A DNA stretch of 64,000 bases from Chloroflexota bacterium (GTDB lineage Bacteria; Chloroflexota; UBA11872; VXOZ01). The position numbers and the translations under genes are program-made. Within the stretch, counting starts at the first letter, position 1. Each line of letters begins with the position of its first letter. Shown piece after piece: positions 4,213 to 38,306 of the stretch. The stretch covers positions 2,682,275 through 2,746,274 of the forward strand of contig OZ242272.1 in assembly GCA_965207135.1 (NCBI GenBank), written 5' to 3'. The notes beneath the pieces were generated by a model. That model was not told where the DNA came from. It was given only the letters and a program-made list of their open reading frames with translations, and searched no databases.

Positions 4213-5127
4213 ATGGCCGGTCTCGCAATCACCACCCACCAGCTACGCAAAGTCTATGGCGACACGCCTGCCGTCGCGAGCCTTGATCTCGCGGTGCCGC
4301 AAGGAGAAATCTTTGGCTTTCTCGGACCCAACGGCGCGGGCAAGAGCACGTGCGTAAAGATGCTCTTGGGCTTGGTCTTTCCGACGGGCGGCAACGGCAC
4401 GTTGTTAGGCGCTCCCTTGGGCGACCGGCGCGTCAAAGCACGAATTGGCTTTCTGCCGGAGCTCTTTCGCTTTCATGAGTGGTTTACTGCGAGGGAGTTT
4501 CTTGACTTTCACGGCAAGCTCTACGGCATGAGCGCCAGGCAACGTAAGGAGCGTATCTCGGCAGTCCTGGCACTCGTCAATTTGGAGCACACGTCCGGCC
4601 AGCAACTGCGCACCTTCTCAAAAGGCATGCTTCAACGCATTGGCATCGCCCAGGCACTGCTGCATGATCCGGAGTTGATCTTCCTCGACGAGCCCACCAG
4701 CGCCCTGGACCCAATCGGCCGCCGTCTCGTGCGGGACATCATCCGCAAACTCAAAGGGGAGCAAAAAACCGTCTTTCTCAATTCTCACCTGCTCTCCGAG
4801 GTAGAAGCGGTTTGCGACCGCGTGGCAATCATCCAGCGCGGGGAAGTGGTGCGCGACGGCACGTTGGACGAACTCCTCGCTGCCCGCCGGCTGCTGGACA
4901 TACACGTAGAGAGTATGAGTGCCGCTGTCTTGGAGCGCGTGAAGTCGCAGTGGACCGCCGCGGCACGCGAGGGCAATCAGCTTACGCTGGCCCTAAATGA
5001 CCCCGCGGACGTGCCGCACGTCGTGGAGTTGCTCGTCACCGGCGGCGCCGACGTACACCATGTGGCACTCCGCCATGAGAGCCTGGAAGACCTTTTCGTG
5101 CGCACCGTGGATGACACCGGCTCATGA
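4213..5127 (+). CDS. ABC transporter ATP-binding protein (ABC-2 type)
   Basis: Walker A GPNGAGKST, signature FSKGMLQR, Walker B LIFLDEPTSALD. Confidence 0.9.
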   Translation: MAGLAITTHQLRKVYGDTPAVASLDLAVPQGEIFGFLGPNGAGKSTCVKMLLGLVFPTGGNGTLLGAPLGDRRVKARIGFLPELFRFHEWFTAREFLDFHGKLYGMSARQRKERISAVLALVNLEHTSGQQLRTFSKGMLQRIGIAQALLHDPELIFLDEPTSALDPIGRRLVRDIIRKLKGEQKTVFLNSHLLSEVEAVCDRVAIIQRGEVVRDGTLDELLAARRLLDIHVESMSAAVLERVKSQWTAAAREGNQLTLALNDPADVPHVVELLVTGGADVHHVALRHESLEDLFVRTVDDTGS

Positions 5128-6827: not shown

Positions 6828-8087
6828 TTACTCGTAGCGCAGCGCCTGGATGGGGTCCAAGCGAGCCGCGCGATTGGCGGGATAGATGCCAAAGAAGATG
6901 CCCACAGAGCCCGCCACGCTTACGGCAAGGAAGATGATGTCCAGCGTAACCGCGGTCTGCAAACTCTCGCCATCACCTCCAAACGGAATCTGTGCAATTC
7001 CGAACGAGATCAACGTGCCGAGCAGAATTCCCAGCACGCCTCCTAGCACACTCACCACCACGCTTTCCACGAGAAACTGAATGAGAATGTCGCGCCGCTT
7101 TGCCCCCACTGCCTTGCGAATGCCGATCTCGCGGGTGCGTTCGGTCACGGAGACGAGCATGATATTCATGATGCCAATGCCGCCTACCAGCAAGGAGATT
7201 CCCGCAATCGCGCCCAAGAAGAGGGTAAAGACGCCAAGGGCCGCGCTGACGGCCTCGATGAGGTCCTTGGGACTCATGATGATGAAGTCGTCGTCCGCTT
7301 CTTCAGGGATTTCATGGCGTTCCCGCAGAATCTGCCTGATCCCCGCCGCGCCCGCATCGATCGTCTCTTCCTGTTCATCCAACAGCTCTATGCTGATAGA
7401 ATTGACGGGCCGTTCACCTCGCGCGGTCACCCACCTACTGAGGCGCGCTTGCGCGGTAGTAATCGGTATCAAGATCGCGTTGTCGCTGCTGTTGCCGAAG
7501 CCGCCGCTACCGCCCTGCTCCTCCAACACCCCAATTACGCGCAAGCGCAGGTTTTCCGCGCGGACGGTCTGGTCGATTGGGTCATCGTCCGGAAACAGGT
7601 CTGCCGCGGCTTTGGAGCCCAAGACAGCCACGGAAGCGCGCGAGTCTACGTCGATTTCAGAGATCGGCTGACCGTAGGCCAGCGTAAGATTGTTCACCGA
7701 TATGTAACTAGCGGTCACGCCCTGCACTGAGACATGCGTATCGTTGCCTTGCGCTACTACGCTGAGGCTGCGGCTGCTTCCTTCCGCAGCCACACCGACA
7801 ACGGTCCCATCCCACGTCAACTCCTCCAGCGCCAGCGCATCTTCGTACGTGAGTTGCTGTGGGGGTTCCTCGCTTGGAGAACCGCCCGGCCGGCCGCTGA
7901 AGATGAAGAGGACGTTCGTGCCGGCCGCCTGCAACTCCGTAGTAATCTGCCTCTCCACGCCGCGACCGATTGACATGAGCGCAGTGACTGAGGCCACGCC
8001 AATAATCATGCCCAGCAAGGTCAGGCTCGTGCGCAGCTTATTTGCAGCCAGGGCGCTGATGGCTACTTTCAATGTCGCGAAATTCAC
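6828..8087 (-). CDS. ABC transporter permease, MacB/FtsX type
   Basis: 419 aa. N-terminal TM, large extracytoplasmic domain, C-terminal FtsX 3-TM bundle ([24 protein letters not shown]). The GTG start overlaps the stop of the upstream ATPase (GTGA). Confidence 0.85.
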
Positions 8088-9061
8088 GGGGCAACCTCGC
8101 TAGATCGTGCTGGTGTTGCTGGTGAAGATCCGGCCTGCGAGGGAGTCTCCTCACCATCGCCAAATGAGGGCTCGCTTGGAGCCTGGCCTGCCCCTGCACC
8201 GGAATTGGAGGATTCACCACCGGCAAAGTCGCCCCGCTCCTCGTCCGCAATGCGACCGTCGCGCATGCGGATGATGCGGTTAGTGCGGCGGGCGATCTCC
8301 TCCTCATGCGTAATAAAGAGCACCGTAATGCCCCGATCGGCATTGAGCCGCAAGAGGAGCGCCATGAGTTCTTCACTCGTGCGTGAATCCAAGTTGCCGG
8401 TGGGCTCGTCCGCCAAGATGATGGCAGGGTCGGTTACCAGGGCGCGGGCAATGGCGACGCGCTGCTGTTGACCGCCGGACAGCTCGGTTGGCTTGTGAGA
8501 CATGCGGTCTTCCAGGCCGACGGCAATCAACGCCTCGCGTGCGCGGTCGCGCCAGCCGGTACCGCCTTTCTGCAGCATGAGGCCTCTCGCCACACCGGCT
8601 CGCTGCTCCGCATCGGATAGTTCGTTCGGCGCCTTGCCCGCGCCAACCGGTGCGCCTGCAGCCGCCGGAGCGCTCTTCGCAGGTTTCTTCCGACTATTCC
8701 CGCCGCCGTAGAGCAAGGGCAGTTCCACTTGCTCCAATGCGCTCACTCGCGGCAGCAGATTGAAGGACTGAAATACGAACCCTATCTTGCGGTTGCGGAT
8801 TTCCGCCAAACGATTGTCATCGAGCGTGGCAACGTCTTCGCCGTCCAGCAAGTAGTCGCCGTCATCGGGACGGTCCAGACAACCAAGGATGTTCATAAGC
8901 GTGGACTTGCCCGAGCCCGAAGGTCCCGTAATCGCCAACAGGTCGCCCCGCTCCACGTTGAGCGAAACCCCGTCGAGGGCATGAATCTCAGAGTCACCCA
9001 TCACGTAGGTCTTTCTGAGGTCGGACGTTTCGATCACAGAATCCGGCATGGACGTCCCCAA
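8084..9061 (-). CDS. ABC transporter ATP-binding protein (MacB/LolD-like) with an internal low-complexity insertion and a disordered C-terminal tail
   Basis: Walker [10 protein letters not shown], signature [15 protein letters not shown], Walker [13 protein letters not shown]. About 50 extra residues lie between LPLLYGG and [12 protein letters not shown] Gly/Ser/Pro-rich tail is present. Confidence 0.85.
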
Positions 9062-9111
9062 TGTCTCAATTCATGCAAAGCCCGCAGGCTCTTTCTTTAC
9101 CCAAACTTCGT

Positions 9112-10965
9112 TTAGCGTGTGCGAATATCAATGCCACCGCCGCCGATGCTCCCGCCCACTCGTGACGGTATGGCGACCTCTTCCCCTTCGCTGATGCCGC
9201 TCAGGATTTCCGATACTTCGCTGTCCCGTACGCCAACCTCAACGACACGCCGTTCCAGATCGTCCCCTGCTTGCCGCACGTAGACGACGCGCTCGTCACC
9301 TTCCCGCCGGATTGCCCTATTAGGCAGCAGCAGGACGTTTGCAAGGCTTGAAACTTCGATCACGGCGTTCGCGGAGAGTCCTCCCCGCAGGTTTTGGTTG
9401 CCCGGTTCCAGCCGAATAGTAATGGGATAGAGCACCACGCCCTGTTGTTCAACAGCGGTTGGGGAGATTGTCTCTACCGTGCCGGCGATCTTCTCATCGG
9501 GTGACGCATACGTGGTCACCACAACCGGCTGCCCGACTTGAATGGACGAAACATCTGCCTCGTCCACTCTTGCCTGCATTTCGATCCGGTCCGCGCGCAC
9601 CAGTGTGACAACCTTATTGCCTGCCTTCTGACCGACATAGCCCTCCACGGCAGCCACCACACCGGCAAACGGCGCCCGCAACACGGCTTGGGTCAAGTCG
9701 CGTTTCGCTTTCTCAAGATTCAATTGCGCGCGCTCGACCTGAAGCTGCTGCAGCTCCACCTCCTGCGAATTGGCGCCGGCGCGGACTGTGTCCAAGTCGA
9801 GGCGGGCACGTTCAATATCGTTGTCCGCCTTTCGCTGCGCCTCTTCGAGCTCGGTTTGGGCAGTCTGCACCTTATCCCTGGCTTCTTCTACTTTCTCCGT
9901 GCTTGGCTGCACCAGCGCATTTTGTTCGTCAATAGCGATTGCCAGCGCATCCCTCGCGCTCTGGACCTCTCGTTCGGCTGCTTGCAGATCACTGCCCGCC
10001 GACACGCGCACGCTCTGAAGGTTGAGCTGCGCCTCTACCAACTTGGCCGTTAGCTCGCCAACAATGGTGCCTGGGGGTGGATTGCCGGACAATTCGTCCT
10101 GTCGAATGCTAATCTCCTGGTCGACGCGGTCTTTCACCTCCTTGAGGTTCTTCTGCGCGTCTTCCAGTTCGGCACGGTGTGATTCACTACCATCCTTGCG
10201 CAGTCTTGCCGCCGCATCGTCGAGACGCTTCTGAGCTTCTTCCAACTCGCTGGTGAACCCCGCGATGTCCTTGCGTACGCGTTCTTTCTCTTTCTCAACT
10301 GCGTTTTGCGCGGCCAATAGCGCGTTATTGGCCGCTTGGATTTTTGCAGCGCCACCGCCGGCGCGCAGCGCAGCCAGCCTCTCTTCCGCTTGTAGCAGGG
10401 CGCTTCTGGCGTCGGCCACTTTCTTATCGGCTGCCTTTACGCCGCTCTCTTCAGGACTAAGCAAGTCCGCCAGCGCTTTTTCGGCATCTTCCAAGGTAGT
10501 TCTGGCATTTCTCAGATTTGCTTCCGCCTGGGACTGCGCAGATTCCAAAGCGAGTTCCGCCTTGCGCACATCCTCTGAAGCGCTCGGCGCCAGGAGCTTT
10601 TCCAGGTTAATTTCAGCGGTACGCAAATTCGACTCTTCCCGCAGCACCGCATCCCGTAGTTCCAGGTCGTCCAGAGAGGCAAGCTGGTCGTCTTTCTCCA
10701 CGGCATCCCCTACGGCAACAAAGACCTCAAGGATGTCTCCCATCACAGGAAAGGCGAGCTCCACTTGCTCCGGATACACAATGTTTCCGGAGGCGTTCAC
10801 CGTAGTCATAATCGTCCCGCGAGTGACCGTGACAAACTCAGTTTCCGCAACGACCTGGCCTTCGTCGTCATCGCCGCCGAGAAACTGCAAAACGGCAAAT
10901 CTTGCACCAACAATGAAGGCTGCCAAGATAACTATCAGGACGATGATTTTCTGCCATCTAGCCAC
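9112..10965 (-). CDS. HlyD/MacA-family periplasmic adaptor (efflux membrane-fusion protein) with a very long coiled coil
   Basis: 617 aa. N-terminal TM anchor. Biotinyl-lipoyl-like halves (VAVGDAVEKDDQLASLD ... APFAGVV). About 350 aa of heptad-rich A/E/L/R sequence. C-terminal beta-barrel region. Confidence 0.8.
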   Translation of the reverse strand: MARWQKIIVLIVILAAFIVGARFAVLQFLGGDDDEGQVVAETEFVTVTRGTIMTTVNASGNIVYPEQVELAFPVMGDILEVFVAVGDAVEKDDQLASLDDLELRDAVLREESNLRTAEINLEKLLAPSASEDVRKAELALESAQSQAEANLRNARTTLEDAEKALADLLSPEESGVKAADKKVADARSALLQAEERLAALRAGGGAAKIQAANNALLAAQNAVEKEKERVRKDIAGFTSELEEAQKRLDDAAARLRKDGSESHRAELEDAQKNLKEVKDRVDQEISIRQDELSGNPPPGTIVGELTAKLVEAQLNLQSVRVSAGSDLQAAEREVQSARDALAIAIDEQNALVQPSTEKVEEARDKVQTAQTELEEAQRKADNDIERARLDLDTVRAGANSQEVELQQLQVERAQLNLEKAKRDLTQAVLRAPFAGVVAAVEGYVGQKAGNKVVTLVRADRIEMQARVDEADVSSIQVGQPVVVTTYASPDEKIAGTVETISPTAVEQQGVVLYPITIRLEPGNQNLRGGLSANAVIEVSSLANVLLLPNRAIRREGDERVVYVRQAGDDLERRVVEVGVRDSEVSEILSGISEGEEVAIPSRVGGSIGGGGIDIRTR

Positions 10966-11362: not shown

Positions 11363-12157
11363 ATGGTAACTCAACGCTTGGCAGGCCGCGCTGCCCTTGT
11401 CACGGGCGGTAGCCGCGGCATCGGCAGAGCAATCGGTCGGGGGCTGGCAGCAGAGGGCGCAGACGTGGCCCTGGTGGCGCGCACGTCCGACGACTTGAGC
11501 GAAGCCGCACACTCGATTGCGCAAGAGACAGGCAGCAGGTCACTTGGCATTGCCGCGGACGTAACGAGCCTTGATGCAATTCAAGAAGCGCTGCACACAG
11601 CCAACGCGGAATTTGGCCGGCTCGACATTTTGGTAGCATGTGCAGGTGGCGGCGTGGTCGGCGGCAACTTTGACGTGCCGGATTCGACCTGGGAAGAGCA
11701 AATTCGCCTCAAGCTGTTGGGCTATATTCGCTCAGCGCGGGAAGCGGTGCCGTACCTGCGGCAAAGCGGCGGCGGCGCGATAGTCCTGATTGGCGGCGGC
11801 TCTGCGCACGATCCTTCAACACGCCTGGCCATCGCGAGTGTGATGAACGCCGGTCTGCTCGCATTCACCAAGACCTTCGCGGATGAAGTAGCGTCAGACG
11901 GCATCCGCATCGTCATGGTGAATCCCGGCCTCACGGAAACCGGCTTGATCGATGACATGGCGCGGCAGAACGAGCGCCTGCGGGGCGAGCCGGCACAGCA
12001 GGCGGCCGACGAGATGCGCGCTCCCAACCCGTTAGGACGCATGACGATGCCGGAGGACGTCGCCAACTTGGTAGCTTTTCTGGTCTCGGACCGCGCCGCC
12101 ATGATAACGGGCACGTCTGTCGACATCGATGCCGGCGCGCGCCGGGGGCTGGCATGA
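11363..12157 (+). CDS. Short-chain dehydrogenase/reductase (SDR) family protein
   Basis: Cofactor motif ALVTGGSRGIGRAIG. Start placed at MVTQRLAG (the ORF track starts 9 codons earlier). The canonical YxxxK is not evident where expected (SVMNAGLLAFTK), so it may be an atypical SDR. Confidence 0.7.
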   Translation: MVTQRLAGRAALVTGGSRGIGRAIGRGLAAEGADVALVARTSDDLSEAAHSIAQETGSRSLGIAADVTSLDAIQEALHTANAEFGRLDILVACAGGGVVGGNFDVPDSTWEEQIRLKLLGYIRSAREAVPYLRQSGGGAIVLIGGGSAHDPSTRLAIASVMNAGLLAFTKTFADEVASDGIRIVMVNPGLTETGLIDDMARQNERLRGEPAQQAADEMRAPNPLGRMTMPEDVANLVAFLVSDRAAMITGTSVDIDAGARRGLA

Positions 12158-12254
12158 ACGCTAAGCGCTCCCTCATGCAACGAGCCGTGTCCGGAGTATT
12201 GGCGCCGCGCGCAACCGACAAACACCAAACATTTGGTCCTCCAGTGGAGCATCT

Positions 12255-13472
12255 ATGGATACCGTTTCTCTAATCGTGGGCGGCCTAGCTGGGCTAGTGC
12301 TCGGCCTCGCGCTTGCCGCGCTCATTGGCCTATGGCGCAGGCAAACCGCCGAGGCCATCGGCGAGCGCATCCGCGAACAGTCTGAACGCGCGCAGCAAGA
12401 ACACGTGCAAACTCTCTTGCAGTCTATGTCCGACCAGTTCCGCAGCCTTTCCTTGCAGGCGCTTAACCAGAGCACGAGCCAACTGGTTGAGATTGCCAAG
12501 AGCCAGCTCGGCGCACAGCAGACTCAGAACACCCAGGAACTCGACGGCAAGAAGCGTCTCATCGATCAGCAGCTCAATCAAATGGGCGCGACGTTGGAGC
12601 AAGTACGCACGCTCATGACCGATGTTCAGGCGCAGAGCGGCGAGCGCTTGAGCGCGCTTACCACAGAAATCCGCAATACCGCCGACCAGACCAAGCGCCT
12701 CACGGAAACCACCAATACGTTGCGCGAGACCCTCGCCAACAGCCGCGCGCGCGGCGCCTGGGGCGAGCGCATGGCCGAGGATGTGCTGCGGGCAGCGGGC
12801 TTGTTGCCCAACATCCACTACACAAAGCAGGAAACCACTGCGGCAGGCACACGACCCGATTTCACCTTCAAGCTGCCCAAAGACCTGTTCCTAAACATGG
12901 ACGTCAAGTTTCCGCTCGATAACTACCTCCGGGCGCTGGAAACGGAATCCGATACGGAACAAGCACAATTTGAGCAACAGTTCTTTCGCGACGTGCGCGC
13001 GCACGTGAAAGCAGTAACCTCGCGGGATTACATCGATCCTGCCGCCAACACCGTGGATTGCGTACTGCTTTTCATCCCTCTTGAACAGGTGTACAGCTTC
13101 ATCATGCAGCGCGACAGCACCCTCCTAGAGAATAGCCTCGCAAGCCGTGTCGTCCTTTGCTCGCCTTTCAGCCTCTTTGGCGTCCTCAGCGTCATTCGCC
13201 AGGCTGCCGAGTTCTTCTCACTCCAGCAGGCTGCGGGCGAGATGCTCACGCTCCTAGGCGCGTTCTCCAAAGAATGGAACCGCTACGTTGACGCGATCAA
13301 CCGGGTAGAAAGTGACATCCAAAAGCTCTCCAAGGACTTCGATGCGCTCACCGGCACCCGCCGCCGCGCGATGGAACGGCAACTCCACAAAGTAGAGACC
13401 TTGCGCACGCAGCAAGCTGACGGTATTGCCGAGCTAGCGGACGGGGAGCAGTCTAAGCCTGAGACTGCATGA
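12255..13472 (+). CDS. rmuC: DNA recombination protein RmuC
   Basis: 405 aa. N-terminal TM helix, long Q/E-rich coiled coil, C-terminal RmuC nuclease-like region (RPDFTFKLP...FLNMDVKFPL...VLLFIPLEQV). Confidence 0.8.
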   Translation: MDTVSLIVGGLAGLVLGLALAALIGLWRRQTAEAIGERIREQSERAQQEHVQTLLQSMSDQFRSLSLQALNQSTSQLVEIAKSQLGAQQTQNTQELDGKKRLIDQQLNQMGATLEQVRTLMTDVQAQSGERLSALTTEIRNTADQTKRLTETTNTLRETLANSRARGAWGERMAEDVLRAAGLLPNIHYTKQETTAAGTRPDFTFKLPKDLFLNMDVKFPLDNYLRALETESDTEQAQFEQQFFRDVRAHVKAVTSRDYIDPAANTVDCVLLFIPLEQVYSFIMQRDSTLLENSLASRVVLCSPFSLFGVLSVIRQAAEFFSLQQAAGEMLTLLGAFSKEWNRYVDAINRVESDIQKLSKDFDALTGTRRRAMERQLHKVETLRTQQADGIAELADGEQSKPETA

Positions 13473-13959
13473 CTCTTGCGGGCAGACGCCTCTGATCGAG
13501 AATCTCATGCCCTGTGTAATGCTGATTCGGTTGCGCGCTCGTCAAACCAGGAGGGCGCAGCACGCACGCCAGCGTTGGCAATCCACCTTGCGGGGCATCC
13601 GAGGCTGCATCCTTTACTCCGAATCCGGTCGACAAAGACGAGGGTACGGGGCTTCGTTTCGCAAATGACATCGTGGGCCGGCGCGGCGGCTAAGTGGCGC
13701 CTGTATCCGAATTAGGCGAGAACACAGAGATGATTTTCTCAGCCCAGTAGCTTGAAACTAAGGCACGAGAGGCGTGCGCAGCGCCAGCAGACGAGTCCAG
13801 ATAGAAGAAGGCAGCAATAGATTATTCCGCAGCACCGGCCGCCATCGACACCGATTCTAGCCGCAATCGGGGAGAGGCCGTGAAATGGGCGCGCTTTCCA
13901 GCGCACCCAGCCGCTTCGCATGCTGCCCTGGCAACACCAAGACCCGTGCGGCGCGCCGG

Positions 13960-16035
13960 CTAGTCGCCCGCCACTTCCGCCGGTTCCTTGGCAGGCGCTT
14001 TTTCAGCCGAGTCTTTGTCAGCAGCAGGCGGACGCGAACTCGCGAATTCGCAGTCGGGATATCGAGAGCAACTGTAGAATACGTTGCGGCGTTTGTTGAG
14101 CTTCCGCACGATCTCCCCTTGACCGCACTGCGGGCAGCCGACGCCAATCGTATCTAAGTAAGGCTTGGTATTGCGGCATTGCGGAAAGCCGCTGCACCCG
14201 ATAAATTTGCCAAAGCGGCCGCTGCGCAGGAGCAGTGGTTTCCCGCACTCTTCGCACATCTCGCCGGTCTCTTCCACTGGCGGCTTGACACGCTCAGCTT
14301 CTTGGTCCGCCTTCTCCAGTGCTTCGCTGAAGCCGCCGTAGAACTCTTTGAGAACGGGCGTCCACTGCTTTTCCCCGCGGGAGATTGCGTCCAGGTCTTC
14401 CTCCATAACCGCCGTAAATTCAGGTTTGATGATGTCTGGGAAATGCTTGACGAGCATGTCCCGCACCACCATCCCCAGCTCCGTAGGCTTGAGGGTGCGG
14501 CGTTCGCGCTCCACGTAGGTGCGCTCCTGAATCACCGACAAGATAGGCGCATAGGTGCTCGGCCTGCCAATTCCCTCCTCTTCCAACGCTCGAATGAGGC
14601 TCGCCTCGGAAAAGCGCGGCGGGGGCTGGGTGAAGTGCTGCTCCGGCCAGAGTTTATTGAGATCCAACTCCTCGCGTTCCGCCAGTGGGGGCAGGAAATT
14701 CTTCTCGTCTGCCTGTTCTTCGTCTGCGCGGTAGACCTGATAGAATCCGGGAGTTTTCACTTTCGTTGCCGACGTTCTGAAGCGGTACTTCAGGTCCGCC
14801 CCATCTTGTTGCGGCACAATGTCTACCGATGTTGTCTGCAGCACGGCCGGGCGCATCTGGCTGGAAACAAATCGCCGCCAAATGAGCGTATAGAGCTTGA
14901 GTTGGTTGGTATCCAAGAATTCCCGCATTTGCTCCGGCGTACGCGAGACGCTGGTTGGGCGGATTGCCTCGTGGGCCTCCTGGGCATTCTTCACTCGAGA
15001 CGTGTAGCGATTTGGCTTCTCGGGCACTTCATCCGACCCAAACGTCTGACCGATGTACTGCCGCACCTGCGCAATCGCCTCATTGCTGACCTGCACGGAG
15101 TCGGTGCGCATGTAGGTGATAAGACCCACTTGGCCTTCCCCGCCAATTTCAATGCCCTCATAGAGCTGTTGTGCTAAGCGCATGGTGCGGGCGGCGCCAA
15201 AATTCAAGCGACTGGAAGCGTCCTGCTGCATAGTGCTCGTGGTGTACGGTGCGCTTGGCCGTCGCCGTCTCTCTCGCACTGAAATCTTTTGCACCGGCCA
15301 GGTGGCGCCGTCAAGCTCCGCAACGATGTTCTCCGCTGTCGCTCCATCGTTGATTTCAGGCTTCTTGCCGCTCACCTGCACCAGCTCAGCGTCGAATTGG
15401 TCCTGAGCGCGCTTGGCGGGCCGCTTGGCAAGACCAGCGTGAAGCGACCAATATTCCTGCGGCGCAAACGCCTCGATTTCGCGTTCGCGGTCCACGATGA
15501 GACGCAGAGCGACGGATTGCACCCGTCCGGCGGACAGACCCCGTTGGACCTTGCGCCAGAGAAATGGGCTCATCTTATACCCGACCAGGCGATCCAGCAC
15601 TCGCCGCGCTTGCTGCGCGTCCACTAAGTCGGCGTTGATTTCGCGTGGTTCGTCCAGAGCGTGCCTAACGGCATCTTCGGTTATCTCATGAAAGACGACA
15701 CGCTTCGCGCTCATGTCCGGGCTCTTCATTCTCCGCTTGAGCGCCTCGAGCAAATGCCACGCAATAGCTTCACCTTCCCGGTCGGGGTCAGTGGCAAGCA
15801 AGACTTCACTTGCCTTTCGCGCGTGCTCAGTGAGTTTCTTGACGGTGGCACTCTTGTCGCGCGGAACGACATACGACGGCGTAAAGTCTTTCTCCACCTC
15901 CACCCCAAGTTTGCTCTTGGGAAGATCCCGCACATGACCCATAGATGACTCAACCGCGTAATTGCGGCCAAGGAATTTCTTGATTGTCCGCGCCTTCGTA
16001 GGCGATTCAACGATGATCAGTTTTCGTTTAGCCAA
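13960..16035 (-). CDS. topA: DNA topoisomerase I
   Basis: Toprim start KLIIVESPTKA and DPDREGEAIAWH. Active-site region GLITYMRTDS. Two C-terminal C4 zinc ribbons (CEECGKP...CSGFPQC; CPQCGQG...CSRYPDC). Confidence 0.95.
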   Translation of the reverse strand: MAKRKLIIVESPTKARTIKKFLGRNYAVESSMGHVRDLPKSKLGVEVEKDFTPSYVVPRDKSATVKKLTEHARKASEVLLATDPDREGEAIAWHLLEALKRRMKSPDMSAKRVVFHEITEDAVRHALDEPREINADLVDAQQARRVLDRLVGYKMSPFLWRKVQRGLSAGRVQSVALRLIVDREREIEAFAPQEYWSLHAGLAKRPAKRAQDQFDAELVQVSGKKPEINDGATAENIVAELDGATWPVQKISVRERRRRPSAPYTTSTMQQDASSRLNFGAARTMRLAQQLYEGIEIGGEGQVGLITYMRTDSVQVSNEAIAQVRQYIGQTFGSDEVPEKPNRYTSRVKNAQEAHEAIRPTSVSRTPEQMREFLDTNQLKLYTLIWRRFVSSQMRPAVLQTTSVDIVPQQDGADLKYRFRTSATKVKTPGFYQVYRADEEQADEKNFLPPLAEREELDLNKLWPEQHFTQPPPRFSEASLIRALEEEGIGRPSTYAPILSVIQERTYVERERRTLKPTELGMVVRDMLVKHFPDIIKPEFTAVMEEDLDAISRGEKQWTPVLKEFYGGFSEALEKADQEAERVKPPVEETGEMCEECGKPLLLRSGRFGKFIGCSGFPQCRNTKPYLDTIGVGCPQCGQGEIVRKLNKRRNVFYSCSRYPDCEFASSRPPAADKDSAEKAPAKEPAEVAGD

Positions 16036-33132: not shown

Positions 33133-33369
33133 ATGGCCGAGAAGCAGCGGCTCAGCATCGAATACTGCACCTCGTGAGGCTACCTCCCGAAAGCCGTCAG
33201 TTTGACGGAACAAGTGCTGGATAAACACGAACAGAACATCGAGAGCCTAGAGCTCATCCCCTCCGGCGGCGGTGCCTTCGAGGTGACCCTCAACAACAAC
33301 GTCATCTTCTCCAAACACCAAGAGGGGCGCTTCCCCGATCACGAAGAGGTGCTCAAACACCTAAGCTAA
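33133..33369 (+). CDS. selW: SelW-like (Rdx family) protein with CxxU motif; in-frame TGA at 33175-33177
   Basis: AAAGGAG lies 7 nt before the ATG. Translation is MAEKQRLSIEYCTS[TGA]GYLPKAVSLTEQVLDKHEQNIESLELIPSGGGAFEVTLNNNVIFSKHQEGRFPDHEEVLKHLS. IEYC-x-x-U, GGxFEV and GRFP are the Rdx/SelW hallmarks. Not in the ORF track because of the TGA. Confidence 0.7.
33194..33208 (+). other. Candidate SECIS hairpin for the SelW-like gene
   Basis: CCGUCA-GUU-UGACGG. It starts 16 nt after the TGA. The stem is short (6 bp), so support is weak. Confidence 0.3.
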
Positions 33370-33451
33370 ATCCAACATACCAGCTAAGTGATTGCATCCC
33401 TCGCAAGCATCCTGAGACACTAAGCGATACTACCGAGCGCAGCGTCAAGGA

Positions 33452-35251
33452 TTGCTTGTGGAGGGACTTTTCTTAACTTTCATGATTGACCCCATTCAGT
33501 CTTTAGCATTCTCCATGCACTCCAATCCAGGCGTGTATGCTCTCCTGCTTGGATCGGGCGTATCTAGGTCTGCGCAAATTCCAACGGGCTGGGAGATAAC
33601 GCTAGACCTGATTCGGAAGCTGGCAGCGGCATCGAATGAGTCGGCCGAGCCTGACCCCGAACGGTGGTTTCAGGAAAAGTGTGGGGAACCGCCGGACTAC
33701 TCAAAGCTTCTCAACGAGCTAGCCAAGACGCCAGCCGAGCGGCAGCAATTGCTGCGTCCATACTTCGAGCCAAACGAGCAGGAACGAGAAGAAGGCGCGA
33801 AAAAGCCTACAGCCGCGCACCGAGCTATTGCCCAACTAGTCGCCAAAGGCTATATCAGAATCATTATCACGACGAATTTTGATCGTTTAATCGAAAAGGC
33901 CTTAGAAGACGTAGGGATTGCAGCTACAGTTCTGAGTTCCCCGGATGATGTTCGGGGCGCGCCCCCGCTTATCCACATGTCATGCTGCGTTCTCAAACTT
34001 CACGGCGACTATCTCGACACGCGCATTCGTAATACGCCCACTGAACTTGATACCTACCCAGAGGAATTTGAGCAACTCCTTGATCGCATTCTTGACGAGT
34101 TTGGACTCATCGTATGTGGCTGGTCCGCGGCGTGGGATACGGCTTTGTACAAAGCGCTTTTGGACGCCCCATCCCGACGCTACACAACCTATTGGGCAGT
34201 ACACAAGGAAGTTAGTGGTCAGGCACGACAGGTTATCAAACGTCATTGTGCCGAGGAAATCCCAATTGATGGTGCCGACGGATTTTTAAAGGCCGTCCAT
34301 CAGCAAGTCGAGTCTCTCGAACAATCCTCGCAACCCAAGCCCATTACCTCAGAGATTGCGATCAAGCGCTTAGAGCCGTATCTTTCCGAGCCGCGATACC
34401 GAATACAGCTGTCAAAGCTCATAAAGGAGAACGTAGATCAAGTAGTCGAGGAAACTTCCGGCCAAGACTTCGGCATGCAAGATCCCAATCCTGGCGAGAA
34501 TCTTGTAACGACACTTGTCCACGCCTACGAAACTGCCTGCTCAACCCTCCTCGCTATGGCAACGGTTGGAGGCCGTTGGGCGGAAGAATACCATTGGGAT
34601 GTCTGGCAAGAAGCGTTGGAGCGTCTCGCAACGGTTTCTAACATTAGAGGACACGGGATTTTGCCTAATTTGCGCTTCTATCCAGCCACTCTGTTGCTCT
34701 ATGCATTGGGCTTGGGAGCAGTCGCGTCCGAGCGGCTTGAATTCCTTGGTCACATCTTTTGCGCTCGGGTTCGCCAGGAAGGTGGCAATGTGTGGCCTGC
34801 TGTCTTCCAACTTCCACGAATCGCACTGTCAGATTCGGACGCGAGAAGTCACTTGATCGGGATGGAAAAACGCTTGGCGCCATTTAGCGACTGGATACAT
34901 GATAAGCTGCGAAAGCACACGAAAAGCGTCATTCCCGACGACCAGTATACATTCGACTTCGACAAGCTCGAGATATTGATCGCATTGGGGTACGCACACC
35001 ACTCCAACAAAATATTAGGAAGCTACATTACTCCTATCGGCGCATTCGGATACCGCGGTGAGAACACCATACGAATTGTAAGGGACATCGAGGCGTCTAT
35101 CCGGACGCACAGTCACAATTCACCTTACGTCAGATCCGGAATCTTTGGCGATACTGCGAGTGATTGCCAACAGAATACTGAAAGGTTTAAAGACGAGTGC
35201 AATAACCTGCCGCCGTTTTGGTATCGCTATAGTGATTCGACGTGGATATGA
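33452..35251 (+). CDS. SIR2-family (SIR2_2-type, defence-associated sirtuin-like) protein with an uncharacterised ~300-aa helical C-terminal domain
   Basis: N-terminal domain motifs YALLLGSGVSRSAQIPTGWE (NAD-binding glycine loop), IIITTNFDRLIE (Asn/Asp) and VLKLHGDY (catalytic His). No P-loop anywhere. An alternative ATG start lies at 33482. The local GC is clearly lower than the flanks. Confidence 0.8.
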   Translation: MLVEGLFLTFMIDPIQSLAFSMHSNPGVYALLLGSGVSRSAQIPTGWEITLDLIRKLAAASNESAEPDPERWFQEKCGEPPDYSKLLNELAKTPAERQQLLRPYFEPNEQEREEGAKKPTAAHRAIAQLVAKGYIRIIITTNFDRLIEKALEDVGIAATVLSSPDDVRGAPPLIHMSCCVLKLHGDYLDTRIRNTPTELDTYPEEFEQLLDRILDEFGLIVCGWSAAWDTALYKALLDAPSRRYTTYWAVHKEVSGQARQVIKRHCAEEIPIDGADGFLKAVHQQVESLEQSSQPKPITSEIAIKRLEPYLSEPRYRIQLSKLIKENVDQVVEETSGQDFGMQDPNPGENLVTTLVHAYETACSTLLAMATVGGRWAEEYHWDVWQEALERLATVSNIRGHGILPNLRFYPATLLLYALGLGAVASERLEFLGHIFCARVRQEGGNVWPAVFQLPRIALSDSDARSHLIGMEKRLAPFSDWIHDKLRKHTKSVIPDDQYTFDFDKLEILIALGYAHHSNKILGSYITPIGAFGYRGENTIRIVRDIEASIRTHSHNSPYVRSGIFGDTASDCQQNTERFKDECNNLPPFWYRYSDSTWI

Positions 35252-35395
35252 CCGACACGTAACGTATACGGCAGGCAATCTCAGTGAGAATACAAGCGAT
35301 ACCTGGCGCTGAATTGCATCTGTTACGAGAGAACGAGAGACGGGCTTGCCGCTTCCTTCTCGTCCTCGGCAGAATCTCTGCTCAAGGAAGGCATT

Positions 35396-37381
35396 ATGGA
35401 GAAAGCCGCACACGGTAGCGACCAAGAGGTGACTGCTGCTTGCCGCCAGGTCGCCGATCGGGCTCGTCGGGCGAGCAATTCCGGCGACCATGAACGGGCC
35501 ATCGCCTACTATAATGACGCGATCTTCCTCAAGCCAGACTATGCATTAGCCTGGAACAATCGGGGTCTTGAGAAGTCCAAGCTTGGCAGGTATGAGGAGG
35601 CTATTGCCGACCATAGTCAAGCTATTCACCTGAAGCCAGGCTATTTCGAAGCCTTCTACTGTCGAGGCTGGGCAAAGGCCGAGCTTGGCAGCTATGAGGA
35701 CGCCATCGCTGACTATGATCAGGCGACCCGAATCAAATCTGATTCAGCCGACCTCTACATCCATCGAGGCAATGCCAAGTTCACGCTTCGTCGCTATCAG
35801 GACGCTGTTGCCGACTATGATAGAGCGATCCACTATAACCCAGAAAATGCTTCTGCCTATAGGTATCGGAGCATTGCAAAGAAGTGGCTCGGTCTCAATG
35901 ACGAGGCCACCACCGACTATGCCTTAGCCTACTTCTGGAAGGGCGATGGCGAAAGCAAGGCTGGCCGCCATAAGGAGGCTATATCGGACTACGACGAGGC
36001 GATCCGCCGTTGGCCTTATCATGCTCAAGCGTTTGTCATGCGAGGGGTTGCAAAGGACGAGCTTGGCAACCATGAGGAAGCCATCTCCGACTACGATCAA
36101 GCGATCCGGATCGAGCCGGACAATTCTAATGCTTACAATAAGCGGGGGGATGCAAAGAGCAACCTCGGCCGCTATGAAGATGCTGTCGCCGACTACGATC
36201 AGGCGATCCGTCTCAAGCCAGACTACTATGAAGCCTTTTGCAGTCGCGGTTATGCAAATGGAGAACTTGGTCGCCACCAGGACGCCATCGCTGACTATAG
36301 TCAAGCGATCGGTCTCAAGCCGTATAATGCCACAGTATTTGTTAAGCGGGGTGATGCGAAGAGCAACCTCGGCCGCCATGAGGAAGCTATCCTTGACTAT
36401 GATCAGGCGATCTCATTGGATTGGGAGAGGGATCCGGAAACCTACTTCAAGCGGGGCAACGCAAACAGCAATCTTGGACGACGTAGGGACGCCCTCCTCG
36501 ACCATGCTATGTTCTACGCCTTGCGGGGTAGAACAAAATACCGGCCTGGCAAATATGGGGACGCTATCGCTGACTTAGACCAAGCGATCCGTCTTTGGCC
36601 GCATCACGCCGATTTCTTTGTCTCGCGGGGCAATGCATGGAAAGAGCTTGATCGCCACGAAAGAGCTATCGCCGACTACGACCGGGCGATCCGCCTCGCG
36701 CCGGACGACGCCATGGCCTACAGTGAGCGAAGTATTGTAAATGTGAACCTTGACCGCCATGAGGAGGCCATCGCCGACTATGACCAGTTGATCCGCCTGC
36801 AACCGGACGATAGTCGTCCTTACTCCGAGCGGGGAGATGCCAAGAGTAAGCTCGGCCGCTATGAGGAGGCTATTGACGACTATGACCAGGCGATCCGGCT
36901 CAGGCCAGACTATGCTCTCACTTACTCTAAGCGGGGTGATGCGAATAGCAAGCTCGGCCGCTATAAAGAGGCTATAACCGACTATGACCAAGCGATCCAT
37001 CTACGTTTGGACGATTTTTGGACCCACCCCGGCTCAGACTACTCCAAGCGGGGAGATACGAACAGCAAGCTTGGTCGCCATGAGGAAGCTCTTGCCGACT
37101 ATGAGCAAGCGGTTCTCTTTGACCCAGATAACGCCTTATACTTCTACAACCGGGGGGAGGCTAATTTTACCTTAGGTAGGATCGGAGACGGACTGTCCGA
37201 TCTTAAGTCTGCGCTTCGCCTAATAGAGCAGAAGCTAGAAGAGATTCGTAACGCCAGTATTAAGCCTAAGGGTCAGGCGTGGCGGGTAGCGCGTCAACGA
37301 GAAGAAGACGCCTTTCACGATAGACTCATAGCCTCTATCAAGAAGAGGATTCAGACACTTGACAAGGCTGATGCGGAATGA
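35396..37381 (+). CDS. Tetratricopeptide-repeat (TPR) protein, at least 15 near-consensus 34-aa repeats
   Basis: 661 aa. The unit ...RG.AKS.LGRYEEAIADYDQAIRLKPDY..A... recurs with 102-nt periodicity that is also visible at DNA level. AAGGAAGG precedes the ATG. Lies 144 nt downstream of the SIR2 gene. Confidence 0.9.
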   Translation: MEKAAHGSDQEVTAACRQVADRARRASNSGDHERAIAYYNDAIFLKPDYALAWNNRGLEKSKLGRYEEAIADHSQAIHLKPGYFEAFYCRGWAKAELGSYEDAIADYDQATRIKSDSADLYIHRGNAKFTLRRYQDAVADYDRAIHYNPENASAYRYRSIAKKWLGLNDEATTDYALAYFWKGDGESKAGRHKEAISDYDEAIRRWPYHAQAFVMRGVAKDELGNHEEAISDYDQAIRIEPDNSNAYNKRGDAKSNLGRYEDAVADYDQAIRLKPDYYEAFCSRGYANGELGRHQDAIADYSQAIGLKPYNATVFVKRGDAKSNLGRHEEAILDYDQAISLDWERDPETYFKRGNANSNLGRRRDALLDHAMFYALRGRTKYRPGKYGDAIADLDQAIRLWPHHADFFVSRGNAWKELDRHERAIADYDRAIRLAPDDAMAYSERSIVNVNLDRHEEAIADYDQLIRLQPDDSRPYSERGDAKSKLGRYEEAIDDYDQAIRLRPDYALTYSKRGDANSKLGRYKEAITDYDQAIHLRLDDFWTHPGSDYSKRGDTNSKLGRHEEALADYEQAVLFDPDNALYFYNRGEANFTLGRIGDGLSDLKSALRLIEQKLEEIRNASIKPKGQAWRVARQREEDAFHDRLIASIKKRIQTLDKADAE

Positions 37382-37584
37382 ACAGCAGCCACCAAGAGTC
37401 GCGCCACGAATATCCCCGTACGCCTTTTGACAGACAGTATGATTACCACTGCCGCCAATACATCCGCGACAACCCGGCGCGCTGGAGATTCGATCGGGAG
37501 AACCATTGGCAGCGCCACACGCACCAGAGAATTTGTGACCGCCTCTGCGGGAGCCAACGCCGAACGGGGCACCTGCTTGCCTGA
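37378..37584 (+). CDS. Possible small His/Arg/Gln/Cys-rich protein (68 aa), hypothetical
   Basis: The ATG overlaps the TPR stop (ATGA). Third-codon positions are mostly G/C in this frame. No recognisable motif. Confidence 0.25.
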   Translation: MNSSHQESRHEYPRTPFDRQYDYHCRQYIRDNPARWRFDRENHWQRHTHQRICDRLCGSQRRTGHLLA

Positions 37585-37610
37585 CCGTCCGGTGCCAAAG
37601 GAGTCTTCAT

Positions 37611-37889
37611 GTGAAAGAGCCGGCTACCCAGCGTGTTTGGACCGTGGCGGAGGCCAAGGCGCGGCTTTCTGAAATCCTGCGGCTTGCGGAATCCGAGGGA
37701 CCGCAGCAAATCGGCATCCGCAATCCCTGTGTCGTCGTATCCGCCAACGACTGGTACGCGAAGACCCCGCCGCGCAAACCGCTGGGCCAATGGCTAGTAG
37801 AAAACACCCCGCGCGGCGCGAATCTTGAGATTCCCAGGCGGCGCGGATCTCAACGAGAGATTCCGTTCGCTAACGGAGACACGGAGTGA
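37611..37889 (+). CDS. Type II antitoxin, Phd/YefM (VapB-type) family
   Basis: GTG start 7 nt after AAGGAG. WTVAEAKARLSEILRLAESEGPQQIGIRNPCVVVSANDW is the classic Phd/YefM N-terminal fold signature. Confidence 0.75.
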   Translation: MKEPATQRVWTVAEAKARLSEILRLAESEGPQQIGIRNPCVVVSANDWYAKTPPRKPLGQWLVENTPRGANLEIPRRRGSQREIPFANGDTE

Positions 37890-37990
37890 ATAGCCTTCTC
37901 CTGGATACCACCATGCGCTCAGGGTTGATGTGAGACGCTCCCTACTACCGGCCTGTACTTGCCCGTTTTCCTACAACGCCGGCCGTTTAC
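37886..37990 (+). pseudogene. Remnant of a VapC (PIN-domain) toxin gene
   Basis: The GTG overlaps the antitoxin stop (GTGA). It encodes VNSLLLDTTMRSGLM, then TGA at 37931. A PIN N-terminus normally reads ..LLDTNV.SEL... Weak similarity continues for a few codons (DAPYYRPVLARF) and is then lost. No PIN core follows. Confidence 0.45.
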
Positions 37991-38130
37991 TCCCGCCGTG
38001 CGGCGCGTGACGCAGCACCGGTTCTACGTGTGGTATGCTATATTAATCCCCTTGGTTGAACGCCTTAGCCTATCCCGCTCTCTTAATTGCCGAACCGCGG
38101 TAATTCCACCGAAAACGACCCTATTTTTCC

Positions 38131-38159
38131 TTGACACCCTATATCTTGTTATCTATAAT
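38131..38159 (+). promoter_or_regulatory. Consensus sigma70-type promoter upstream of nrdJ
   Basis: TTGACA (38131-38136), a 17-nt spacer, then TATAAT (38154-38159). About 150 nt upstream of the nrdJ ATG. Confidence 0.65.
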
Positions 38160-38185
38160 CTCCACTACAACAAGATATACTATGT
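38134..38185. promoter_or_regulatory. Two NrdR-box-like 16-bp palindromes overlapping and following the nrdJ promoter
   Basis: ACACCCTATATCTTGT (38134-38149) and ACAAGATATACTATGT (38170-38185) resemble the NrdR box acaCwAtATaTwGtgt. Centre-to-centre spacing is 36 bp, longer than the usual ~31-32 bp. Confidence 0.45.
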
Positions 38186-38306
38186 ACGCAGCACATTGAG
38201 TAGCGCAGCTACGCCGCATAGCGTATACGTTAGTCTCTAGTGCATTCCATTTCTTCCAGCAATTCGCGCAGTCTGCCACATCCACGAACCCAAGGAGATT
38301 CCAGCC

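Follow-up and report, generated by a model that had tools for sequence, protein, structure and literature searches.

Two adjacent genes with lowered GC content raise the question of whether a SIR2-family protein and a TPR protein together form a two-gene defense module, as the initial annotation proposed. The genes lie in a 64-kb stretch of DNA, which we refer to as the window. We favor, with a probability of about 0.62, a reading in which gene 1 encodes a stand-alone, single-polypeptide defense sirtuin of the candidate family PDC-S65, and gene 2 encodes a TPR-only scaffold that is a neighbor in a hotspot and not a required partner. The features on which the argument draws are as follows.

33482-35251, plus strand: gene 1, SIR2-family protein and PDC-S65 member, 589 amino acids from ATG.
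33482-34333, plus strand: SIR2 domain of the NADase type, approximately amino acids 11-294 of the 599-amino-acid ORF (Pfam SIR2_2, Foldseek, profile match).
34334-35251, plus strand: all-α C-terminal domain (CTD) of gene 1, amino acids 295-599 (AF2 model, conservation profile).
35396-37381, plus strand: gene 2, TPR-only protein of 661 amino acids (Pfam TPR_11), absent from syntenic relatives.
37459-37594, plus strand: 3′ remnant of an IS200/RayT-like (Y1 transposase) gene; the window-specific segment is bounded by it on the right.
37611-37889, plus strand: intact phd/YefM-like antitoxin gene, 92 amino acids (Pfam PhdYeFM_antitox, nucleotide identity to relative L166).
37886-37933, plus strand: vapC (PIN) toxin stub of 15 codons (VNSLLLDTTMRSGLM, then stop), overlapping the phd stop by 4 nucleotides; read from the sequence.

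The two ORFs were confirmed as annotated (599 and 661 amino acids, a 144-nucleotide gap, a separate RBS for the second), with the start of gene 1 moved to 33482. The full ORF of gene 1 spans 33452-35251 and begins with TTG at 33452; an alignment of 28 sequences (A1) points to the ATG at 33482 (MIDPIQ...) as the best start. Pfam SIR2_2 (PF13289) matches amino acids 137-227 with 39.2 bits (E = 9e-10), above the gathering cutoff of 24.5 bits. The three motifs to which attention had been drawn are located at amino acids 34-38 (GSGVS), 140-144 (TTNFD), and 182-187 (KLHGDY), and the catalytic Asn/His pair was found in both the family alignment and an alignment with SPARSA. Column conservation across 161 PDC-S65 members revealed that N142 and D144 are invariant (161/161), and that position 184 is occupied by His in 147 members and by Asn in 14. 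These 14 NG variants correspond to the NG variant of the HG motif in Avs5, which is functional by experiment (PMC12931631). Foldseek comparison with the PDB returned ThsA, SPARSA Sir2-APAZ, DSR2, and KomBC as the best matches of gene 1 (E values of 1e-8 to 3e-11); these are, without exception, anti-phage NADases, and the SIR2 half of gene 1 superposes on each. A profile search of the PDB aligned amino acids 22-257 motif for motif with the SPARSA Sir2 protein (8jkz/8jl0/8in8; E = 3e-14). Neither protein contains an NTPase domain according to Pfam, NCBIfam, and PADLOC models. The description of gene 1 as a defense-type SIR2 protein that has the catalytic Asn and His and lacks an NTPase is supported by these matches and by the defense contexts of its family; NADase activity is predicted.

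The architecture had been regarded as unnamed, a view overturned by PADLOC. Model PDLC05061 (PDC-S65) matches gene 1 over essentially its full length (residues 9-584 against profile positions 10-587 of 592; E = 8.3e-206), and a second model, PDLC05060, matches with E = 2.5e-136. Judged by profile similarity, gene 1 is a member of PDC-S65, an already catalogued single-gene candidate family for phage defense whose proteins likewise join SIR2 to a helical CTD and are ~585 amino acids long. What defines PDC systems is that their genes were found lying within BREX, DISARM, and type I R-M loci (Payne et al., bioRxiv 10.1101/2024.01.29.577857). They are predictions that were termed unvalidated as late as 2025, and a literature search for PDC-S65 by name returned no mention. 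Homologues of gene 1 number more than 5,900 and span many phyla; the best 120 are full length with 55-61% identity. The family is patchy across bacterial phyla and archaea and is represented on 55 plasmids and a few viral contigs.

Members of PDC-S65 are often found inside or adjoining type I R-M operons. A set of 80 genome loci confirmed this defense context independently, with HsdR in 16, HsdM in 12, and an HsdS/NTase cluster in 19; further neighbors include pAgo, PDC-S14, and PDC-M24B. No neighbor is conserved throughout the family in these 80 loci, the largest cluster being the 19 loci with R-M subunits. The pAgo proteins near some members are long, SLFN-fused forms that are not adjacent to the SIR2 gene. 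The copy studied here lies between proV/selW and nrdJ, with no R-M, BREX, DISARM, or other known defense neighbor.

The C-terminal ~300 amino acids of gene 1, annotated as helical and devoid of a P-loop, proved to be all-α with no P-loop. The AF2 model of this domain has a pLDDT of 81 and a pTM of 0.85. It matched no PDB structure (best E = 0.16; TM ≤ 0.28), and neither a DSR2 chain nor a SPARSA chain appeared among the matches. The CTD is present as a domain family-wide, yet it is the most variable part of the family; across the 161 members, column conservation is 0.77-0.79 for the SIR2 half and drops to 0.36-0.59 for the CTD. Divergence is extreme at this very locus. Between the syntenic relatives L166 and L010, identity drops from ~80% to ~40-50% across the SIR2 gene and is regained directly after it, and the CTDs cannot be aligned even though the flanks share 85-99% identity. 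Because the CTD has no known fold, the lowest conservation, and divergent alleles at a fixed locus, we infer that it may act as a sensor or regulatory domain. A phage-sensing domain engaged in an arms race would be expected to diverge in this way.

Comparison with DSR2, ThsA, SPARSA, and Avs5 suggests a model in which the N-terminal SIR2 domain of gene 1 is an NAD+ hydrolase that is kept inactive. The all-α CTD would sense a sign of infection, which most probably is a phage protein, and sensing would cause the SIR2 domain to be released or assembled. Depletion of NAD+ would then arrest the infected cell, an outcome known as abortive infection. NADase activity, trigger, and abortive outcome are all assigned to gene 1 by this analogy. 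Gene 2 would have been inserted, or retained in this lineage only, in a variable slot between the SIR2 gene and the phd-vapC remnant.

The reported dip in GC content is real, but the figure of ~48% overstated its depth. GC measures 0.51-0.54 by gene and 0.49-0.56 in 500-nucleotide windows, compared with 0.56-0.63 in the flanks; GC3 is 0.54-0.56 in gene 1 and 0.59 in gene 2, compared with 0.70-0.79 in the flanks. The low-GC island had been taken to begin right after the SelW gene. However, SelW and the SIR2 gene at this site are common to the relatives, which leaves the TPR segment as the sole part unique to the window. L010 and L166 both keep the SIR2 gene between proV and nrdJ and have no TPR gene, and the segment 34990-37458 has no counterpart in either. 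No intact transposase is found at the locus, in agreement with the initial annotation, which nevertheless overlooked the remnant at 37459-37594. This remnant shares 72-75% nucleotide identity both with the spacer between the SIR2 and phd genes of L166 and with the 3′ ends of two intact L010 ORFs of 189/190 amino acids that match Pfam Y1_Tnp (E = 9e-5). The neighboring toxin-antitoxin pair had been called a remnant, which holds for the truncated toxin and not for the antitoxin. The phd-like gene, whose PhdYeFM_antitox match (E = 1.3e-4) is under the gathering score, shares 80% nucleotide identity with a 92-amino-acid gene of L166; there the pair is whole, the antitoxin gene preceding an intact PIN gene (139 amino acids, Pfam E = 1.7e-15). 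Similarity to L166 and L010 stops at 37935-37941. The adjacency of gene 2 is best explained by a small hotspot for accessory genes that extends from proV/selW to nrdJ.

Gene 2 starts 144 nucleotides after gene 1, preceded by the RBS AAGGAAGG. Its product matches Pfam TPR_11 in 14 stretches (E = 9e-101) and TPR_1 (E = 2e-99), and consists of 14 clean and a few degenerate repeats of 34 amino acids each, with no effector domain and no TM segment. The repeats had been described as near-identical, which is true only of a 9-residue motif, A[IV]xDY[DS]QAI, present in 14 copies; whole repeats share a mean of 45% amino acid identity and 60-75% nucleotide identity. The database contained no orthologue of gene 2, the best match being a 1125-amino-acid protein with 49% identity over 76% coverage.

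A census of the family revealed how rarely a TPR gene accompanies the sirtuin. A downstream TPR gene occurs in 4 of 132 usable PDC-S65 loci, leaving more than 96% without one, and a further case, L167, was found later. PDC-S65 normally lacks such a gene, whereas the present locus has one. The TPR-bearing loci form no clade. Wherever a TPR gene adjoins the SIR2 gene (the window, L017, L022/L033, L038, and L167), it is downstream on the same strand, a constancy that exceeds random expectation. The TPR proteins of L017, L022, L033, L038, and L167 contain a linker before the repeats, a C-terminal cap, and a TM or TIR-like N-terminal domain. HMMs of linker and cap, built from six SIR2-adjacent TPR proteins, gave strong matches in 16 and 27 of 120 generic matches. 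In gene 2 these HMMs detected no linker, and the best cap match was a partial, repeat-like one (iE = 0.037); membership in the linker-TPR-cap family was rejected, since gene 2 has neither linker nor true cap. TPR families that adjoin SIR2 elsewhere are also found without SIR2 in the same slots, where one adjoins a truncated SIR2 gene. The TPR gene has the appearance of an insertion confined to its lineage and not of a conserved partner, and the proposed two-gene system is therefore probably not real. The lack of a conserved TPR neighbor is an outcome that the initial annotation itself had named as speaking against its module, and it was observed here: TPR neighbors are rare and form no clade, the syntenic relatives are TPR-free, gene 2 has neither an orthologue nor the linker and cap modules, and the other SIR2-adjacent TPR families occur without SIR2.

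Among the alternatives, the best survivor is an independent role for gene 2, which would be a conflict or defense gene in its own right, or what is left, in degenerate form, of an effector-linker-TPR-cap protein after loss of the N-terminal effector, co-located with gene 1 through a common hotspot. The TPR arrays nearest to gene 2 are fused to TIR, caspase/CHAT, trypsin, KAP/AAA_16 NTPase, and SIR2 domains, a type-B TIR-like-TPR family is located in R-M operons, and gene 2 itself has low GC3 and is missing from relatives. We nonetheless consider this reading unlikely: gene 2 has no effector domain, linker, or cap, TPR-only proteins serve many unrelated cell functions, and the lack of an orthologue leaves no comparable context.

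A true two-gene system is less likely again. The TPR protein would then be a sensor, adaptor, or regulator acting in trans, which binds a phage protein and activates or restrains the SIR2 NADase, making the pair a split, NTPase-less analogue of Avs5 and SIR2-TPR fusions. Co-transcription of the two genes is plausible, because they share a strand and low GC3 and are separated by only 144 nucleotides, in which neither a terminator nor a promoter was predicted. A functional link between SIR2 and TPR has precedent in fusions that carry the SIR2 subtype of gene 1 (P0172 and P0214). Haloferax virus Halfgib1 probably encodes a SIR2-TPR fusion as well. In addition, the five other loci with a downstream same-strand TPR gene represent at least three genomic contexts, and TPR or other α-solenoid arrays are proven sensors of phage proteins in Avs5 and DSR2. 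Against these points stand the rarity of the pairing, including its absence from L010 and L166, which hold the SIR2 gene alone, and the conserved CTD of gene 1, which a TPR array replaces in the fusions. Moreover, gene 2 belongs to a different TPR family than other SIR2-adjacent TPR proteins, and those families stand alone in the same hotspots, one of them with its own TIR-like effector domain.

A notion slightly less probable still is that the TPR protein is a detachable sensor or regulator that acts in trans to retarget a self-sufficient PDC-S65 sirtuin. Such pairs would have been assembled repeatedly by landing in the same hotspot, with a bare TPR array here and a TM- or TIR-linked TPR protein in loci of the Latescibacterota type. 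Least probable of all is a non-immune gene 1. It would then encode a sirtuin-like enzyme of regulation or metabolism, either a protein deacylase or an ADP-ribosyltransferase, whose helical domain is peculiar to the lineage, and its low GC content would be owed to old horizontal acquisition. Housekeeping surroundings (proVWX, selW-like, nrdJ), a shared site in three related genomes, and the prediction-only status of PDC-S65 would fit, but CobB-type deacylase models score 17-22 bits against cutoffs of 243-395, all structure and sequence neighbors are defense NADases, the family is R-M-embedded, plasmid-borne, and patchy, and alleles at the fixed locus diverge far more than the flanks do, as arms-race genes typically will.

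With the pairing not upheld, SIR2 plus TPR as a system offers little new biology. PDC-S65 itself merits attention as a large family of bacteria, archaea, and plasmids that is catalogued only as a candidate. Its confidently modeled CTD has no solved structural relative and could represent a sensor fold that is new to immunity by NAD+ depletion.

How does the stand-alone sirtuin compare with known SIR2 systems? SIR2-HerA was rejected, since no HerA ATPase ORF flanks gene 1. Avs5 (SIR2-STAND-TPR) and the SIR2_2-TPR fusions P0172 and P0214 join a SIR2 effector to a TPR-type sensor array, and the fusions share 24-28% identity and a KLHGDY..IRNT motif with gene 1. Here, by contrast, SIR2 and TPR are separate proteins whose pairing is not conserved, there is no STAND NTPase, and gene 1 retains its own CTD. 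Avs5/STAND membership was rejected because neither protein contains a Walker A/B NTPase domain. ThsA, the NADase effector of type I Thoeris, is the top Foldseek match of gene 1 (8wc0; E = 3e-11) by virtue of its SIR2 domain, but gene 1 lacks the SLOG ligand-binding domain and a ThsB/TIR partner gene. The PADLOC ThsA match covers only amino acids 116-188 (E = 1.5e-6) and the window contains no TIR gene, which excluded Thoeris.

The closest solved sequence relative of the SIR2 domain is SPARSA Sir2-APAZ, with which gene 1 has in common the motifs GxGxS, TTNFD, KxHGD(F/Y)...I(K/R)N, and FGLxVxGxS and a length of ~585 amino acids. Its C-terminal half, however, is not APAZ-like; the structural match is confined to the SIR2 half, and PADLOC Aga_SIR2 models cover amino acids 25-260 only. 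No short pAgo adjoins gene 1 and no pAgo of any kind was found in the window; SPARSA membership was rejected for want of an APAZ match and an adjacent short pAgo. Membership in DSR2 was likewise rejected. DSR2 is larger (~1000 amino acids, compared with 589) and contains MID and HEAT-like solenoid domains, superposition of gene 1 on it is limited to the SIR2 part (TMq ~0.34, rmsd of 17-20 Å over long alignments), and the PADLOC Dsr1 match reaches only E = 0.0025. As a functional analogy, DSR2 is the best for gene 1; it too combines an N-terminal SIR2 NADase with an all-helical C-terminal domain in one polypeptide. In DSR2, binding of the phage tail tube protein to this helical domain switches on NAD+ depletion (PMC11850899).

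Both genes of the proposed defence module lie where the initial annotation had placed them:

33452–35251, ORF of gene 1, encoding the SIR2-family protein; likely start ATG 33482, 589 aa
35396–37381, gene 2, encoding the TPR-only protein; 661 aa, 144 nt downstream of gene 1 and preceded by a AAGGAAGG RBS

ATG 33482 is the likely start of gene 1 because its homologues begin at MIDPIQ... in a 28-sequence alignment. The reported dip in GC content is real, with values of 0.51–0.54 for the two genes compared to 0.56–0.63 in the flanks, but its size had been overstated, since 500-nt windows range from 0.49 to 0.56; GC3 is 0.54–0.59 in the island and 0.70–0.79 in the flanks. The regularity ascribed to gene 2 holds for 14 clean copies of A[IV]xDY[DS]QAI but less so for the whole repeats, which average only 45% identity. 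A scan revealed no promoter or terminator between the two genes; its counts did not exceed the shuffled expectation, which renders the scan uninformative on co-transcription. The three SIR2 hallmark motifs (GSGVS, TTNFD, and KLHGDY) are all present in gene 1. N142 and D144 are kept in 161 of 161 family members, and the position of H184 is occupied by His in 147 and by Asn in 14, the latter carrying NG in place of HG (KVNGDY). In Avs5, an NG motif standing in for HG was shown to be functional (PMC12931631); by analogy, the NG variant is probably active.

The PADLOC model of the single-gene phage-defence candidate PDC-S65 covers gene 1 end to end (E = 8.3e-206), and gene 1 is a further member of this catalogued candidate family. 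The PDC catalogue comprises 145 candidate systems, predicted from genes that lie inside BREX, DISARM, and type I restriction-modification (R-M) loci (bioRxiv 10.1101/2024.01.29.577857). At E ≤ 1e-5 the family comprises more than 5,900 proteins distributed patchily across many bacterial phyla and archaea, with genes on 55 plasmids and a few viral contigs; the best 120 homologues of gene 1 are all ~585 aa in length and 55–61% identical. No universal neighbour of the family SIR2 gene emerged from 80 reference-genome loci. Recurrent neighbours were HsdR (16), HsdM (12), and an HsdS/nucleotidyltransferase cluster (19), with pAgo, PDC-S14, and PDC-M24B among the others, and these counts independently reproduce the R-M-embedded context of PDC-S65. 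A literature search returned no paper on PDC-S65 and no experimental study of the gene 1 architecture; S65 and SIR2 are not listed in the accessible part of the PDC preprint's supplements. In 6 of the 80 loci (L001–L080), a long SLFN/AlbA_2-fused pAgo (for example, L032 11218–14784; full-length match to PADLOC PDLC02394, E = 0) is encoded no more than 5 kb from the PDC-S65 gene, at varying distance, on either side, and never adjacent. This proximity is notable because the SIR2 domain most resembles that of the pAgo-associated Sir2-APAZ.

The proposal that genes 1 and 2 constitute a two-gene module found no support in neighbour counts, the phylogenetic tree, syntenic relatives, or a search for gene 2 homologues. 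Gene 2 was compared by phmmer with all ORFs of 165 family loci, 132 of which extend 1 kb or more downstream. A TPR ORF adjoins the SIR2 gene in only 4 of these 132 (L017, L022, L033, and L038), and the comparison gave one further, distant case; a conserved TPR neighbour is therefore rejected as a family trait. The TPR-linked SIR2 proteins do not form one clade; they are scattered in a neighbour-joining tree of 161 sequences, in which the window SIR2 clusters with copies from Chloroflexota whose loci lack a TPR gene. The reciprocal search with gene 2 yielded no orthologue (best match 49% identity over 76% coverage), and its matches are generic TPR arrays joined to a wide variety of domains. The SIR2 gene of L033 (10001–11335) is truncated near residue 421 and runs into the TPR ORF; it is likely a pseudogene. 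L022 is a 4.7-kb contig binned as Dehalococcoidia, and its downstream SpoU/RlmB-like gene (4412–4674) is nearly identical to that of the Latescibacterota chromosome L033 (15987–16730); the contig may be mis-binned.

Two syntenic relatives carry a SIR2 gene between proV and nrdJ, and the TPR gene is absent from both. In L010, a Chloroflexota MAG chromosome, the order is proX-proW-proV, a selW-like gene, SIR2, two IS200/RayT-like ORFs, the phd region, and nrdJ. In L166, which holds the closest homologue (P0002), the order is sulfatase-proXWV-SIR2, with an intact phd-like gene and the gene of a PIN toxin immediately after SIR2. At the nucleotide level, similarity to the window extends through selW into SIR2, as far as 34596 for L010 and 34989 for L166, is absent across the 3' end of SIR2 and all of gene 2, and resumes at 37453–37459 in a RayT-like 3' remnant, from which it extends across phd, a 15-codon vapC stub, and nrdJ. 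The SIR2 gene is accordingly a resident of the locus in this lineage, and gene 2 is window-specific. Downstream of SIR2, L010 contains two near-identical IS200/RayT-like Y1 transposase ORFs (11993–12565 and 13482–14051), and only a 135-nt 3' remnant of the RayT-like gene is left in the window and L166, which identifies the site as a hotspot of recombination.

Consistent with the initial annotation, no integrase was found at the island borders, nor was a tRNA or Rfam match; tRNAs and Rfam families (riboswitch or other RNA) are absent from the whole 64-kb window. Only one flanking repeat was seen, a weak and imperfect direct repeat of 17 nt (14/17 matches; 35412–35428 and 37382–37398, 1970 nt apart) that almost exactly brackets the TPR ORF; it is probably due to chance and could be an insertion scar. 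Three further features accompany the locus:

33134–33370 (+), small selW-like ORF, Rdx/SelW family by Pfam (PF10262, E = 1e-22, U read as C), in-frame TGA at 33176–33178
38000–38306, AT-rich nrdJ leader containing palindromes of the ACAAGATAT type that may be NrdR boxes
38131–38159 (+), perfect sigma-70 consensus promoter TTGACA-17-TATAAT upstream of nrdJ

The in-frame TGA and the redox motif C-T-S-U indicate that the selW-like product is likely a selenoprotein. This ORF is common to L010 and L166, and its GC3 (0.58) is also below that of the flanks.

SIR2-adjacent TPR proteins at other loci share a linker module preceding the repeats and a C-terminal cap, and occur in two forms: one is TM-anchored and the other has a TIR-like N-terminus (PADLOC TIR effector model, E = 1.8e-9). 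HMMs for linker and cap produced strong matches in 16 and 27, respectively, of 120 generic TPR matches and none in gene 2, which by sequence does not belong to this family. Three members found without reference to SIR2 (P0165, P0209, and P0197) directly follow hsdS in type I R-M operons that contain no SIR2 gene, and the locus of P0235, syntenic with L033, has none either. Because members occur without SIR2, its adjacency to TPR genes elsewhere most plausibly reflects independent cassettes that became co-embedded in shared slots. In L167, P0207, which is among the top 120 gene 2 matches, lies 1.7 kb downstream of the SIR2 homologue P0041, with a further TPR gene and a gene for a DUF1828 protein in between. 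We rejected this locus as support for a genuine pairing, since gene 2 lacks linker and cap and the TPR family stands alone in R-M operons. The TIR-like form (TIR-like domain, linker, ~10 TPRs, and cap; ~600 aa) occurs within type I R-M operons alongside MNT/HEPN pairs, immediately after hsdS and overlapping it by 4 nt:

L169, 6001–7824
L170, 6001–7812
L172, 6001–7812
L017, 12918–14750
L167, 13514–15451

Because PADLOC returned weak TIR/TPR matches only, this family could represent an embedded defence candidate absent from current catalogues.

Functional coupling of genes 1 and 2 in the window is improbable, even though all SIR2-adjacent TPR genes lie downstream of SIR2 and share its strand. 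P0172 and P0214 (1003 aa) unite the SIR2 subtype of gene 1 (24–28% identity, KLHGDY..IRNT motif) with a long TPR array in single polypeptides, and a Haloferax virus protein appears similar to these fusions. In P0172 and P0214, however, the array stands in place of the all-alpha C-terminal domain (CTD) that gene 1 retains. The Haloferax virus gene (MW344766.1 13350–14189, H13) is annotated as a TPR protein and shares 25% identity with the SIR2 domain.

Of greater interest than the two-gene pairing is the hypervariable CTD of the PDC-S65 family. Between L166 (SIR2 at 8001–9749) and L010 (10007–11767), the flanks are 85–99% identical, whereas identity within SIR2 declines from ~80% at the 5' end to ~40–50% at the 3' end and recovers immediately past the gene. 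This profile points to either allelic replacement or diversifying selection that acts mainly on the CTD. Within the sample, the window CTD lacks a close relative (best, 50–61%), and in this domain the syntenic relatives are no nearer to the window than random family members. When modelled separately with AF2, the C-terminal 305 residues form an all-alpha domain (pLDDT 81, pTM 0.85) for which Foldseek detected nothing significant in the PDB (best E = 0.16, TM ≤ 0.28); we therefore rejected its assignment as APAZ, SLOG, or a DSR2-type solenoid.

The full-length AF2 model of gene 1 (pLDDT 80) matches only defence sirtuins in the PDB (ThsA, SPARSA Sir2-APAZ, DSR2, and KomBC), and good superpositions span the ~300 residues of the SIR2 half. 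Gene 1 combines an NADase-type catalytic set with structural kinship to NADase effectors, and its family resides in a defence context. Most likely, the CTD acts as a rapidly diversifying sensor that would activate the SIR2 domain, which in turn would deplete NAD+ and abort infection. In a sequence-profile comparison, the SPARSA Sir2 protein emerged as the nearest solved relative of gene 1 (aa 22–257, E = 3e-14), and the two agree motif for motif. The proposed mechanism would resemble that of DSR2, in which the tail tube protein is the ligand of a helical CTD (PMC11850899).
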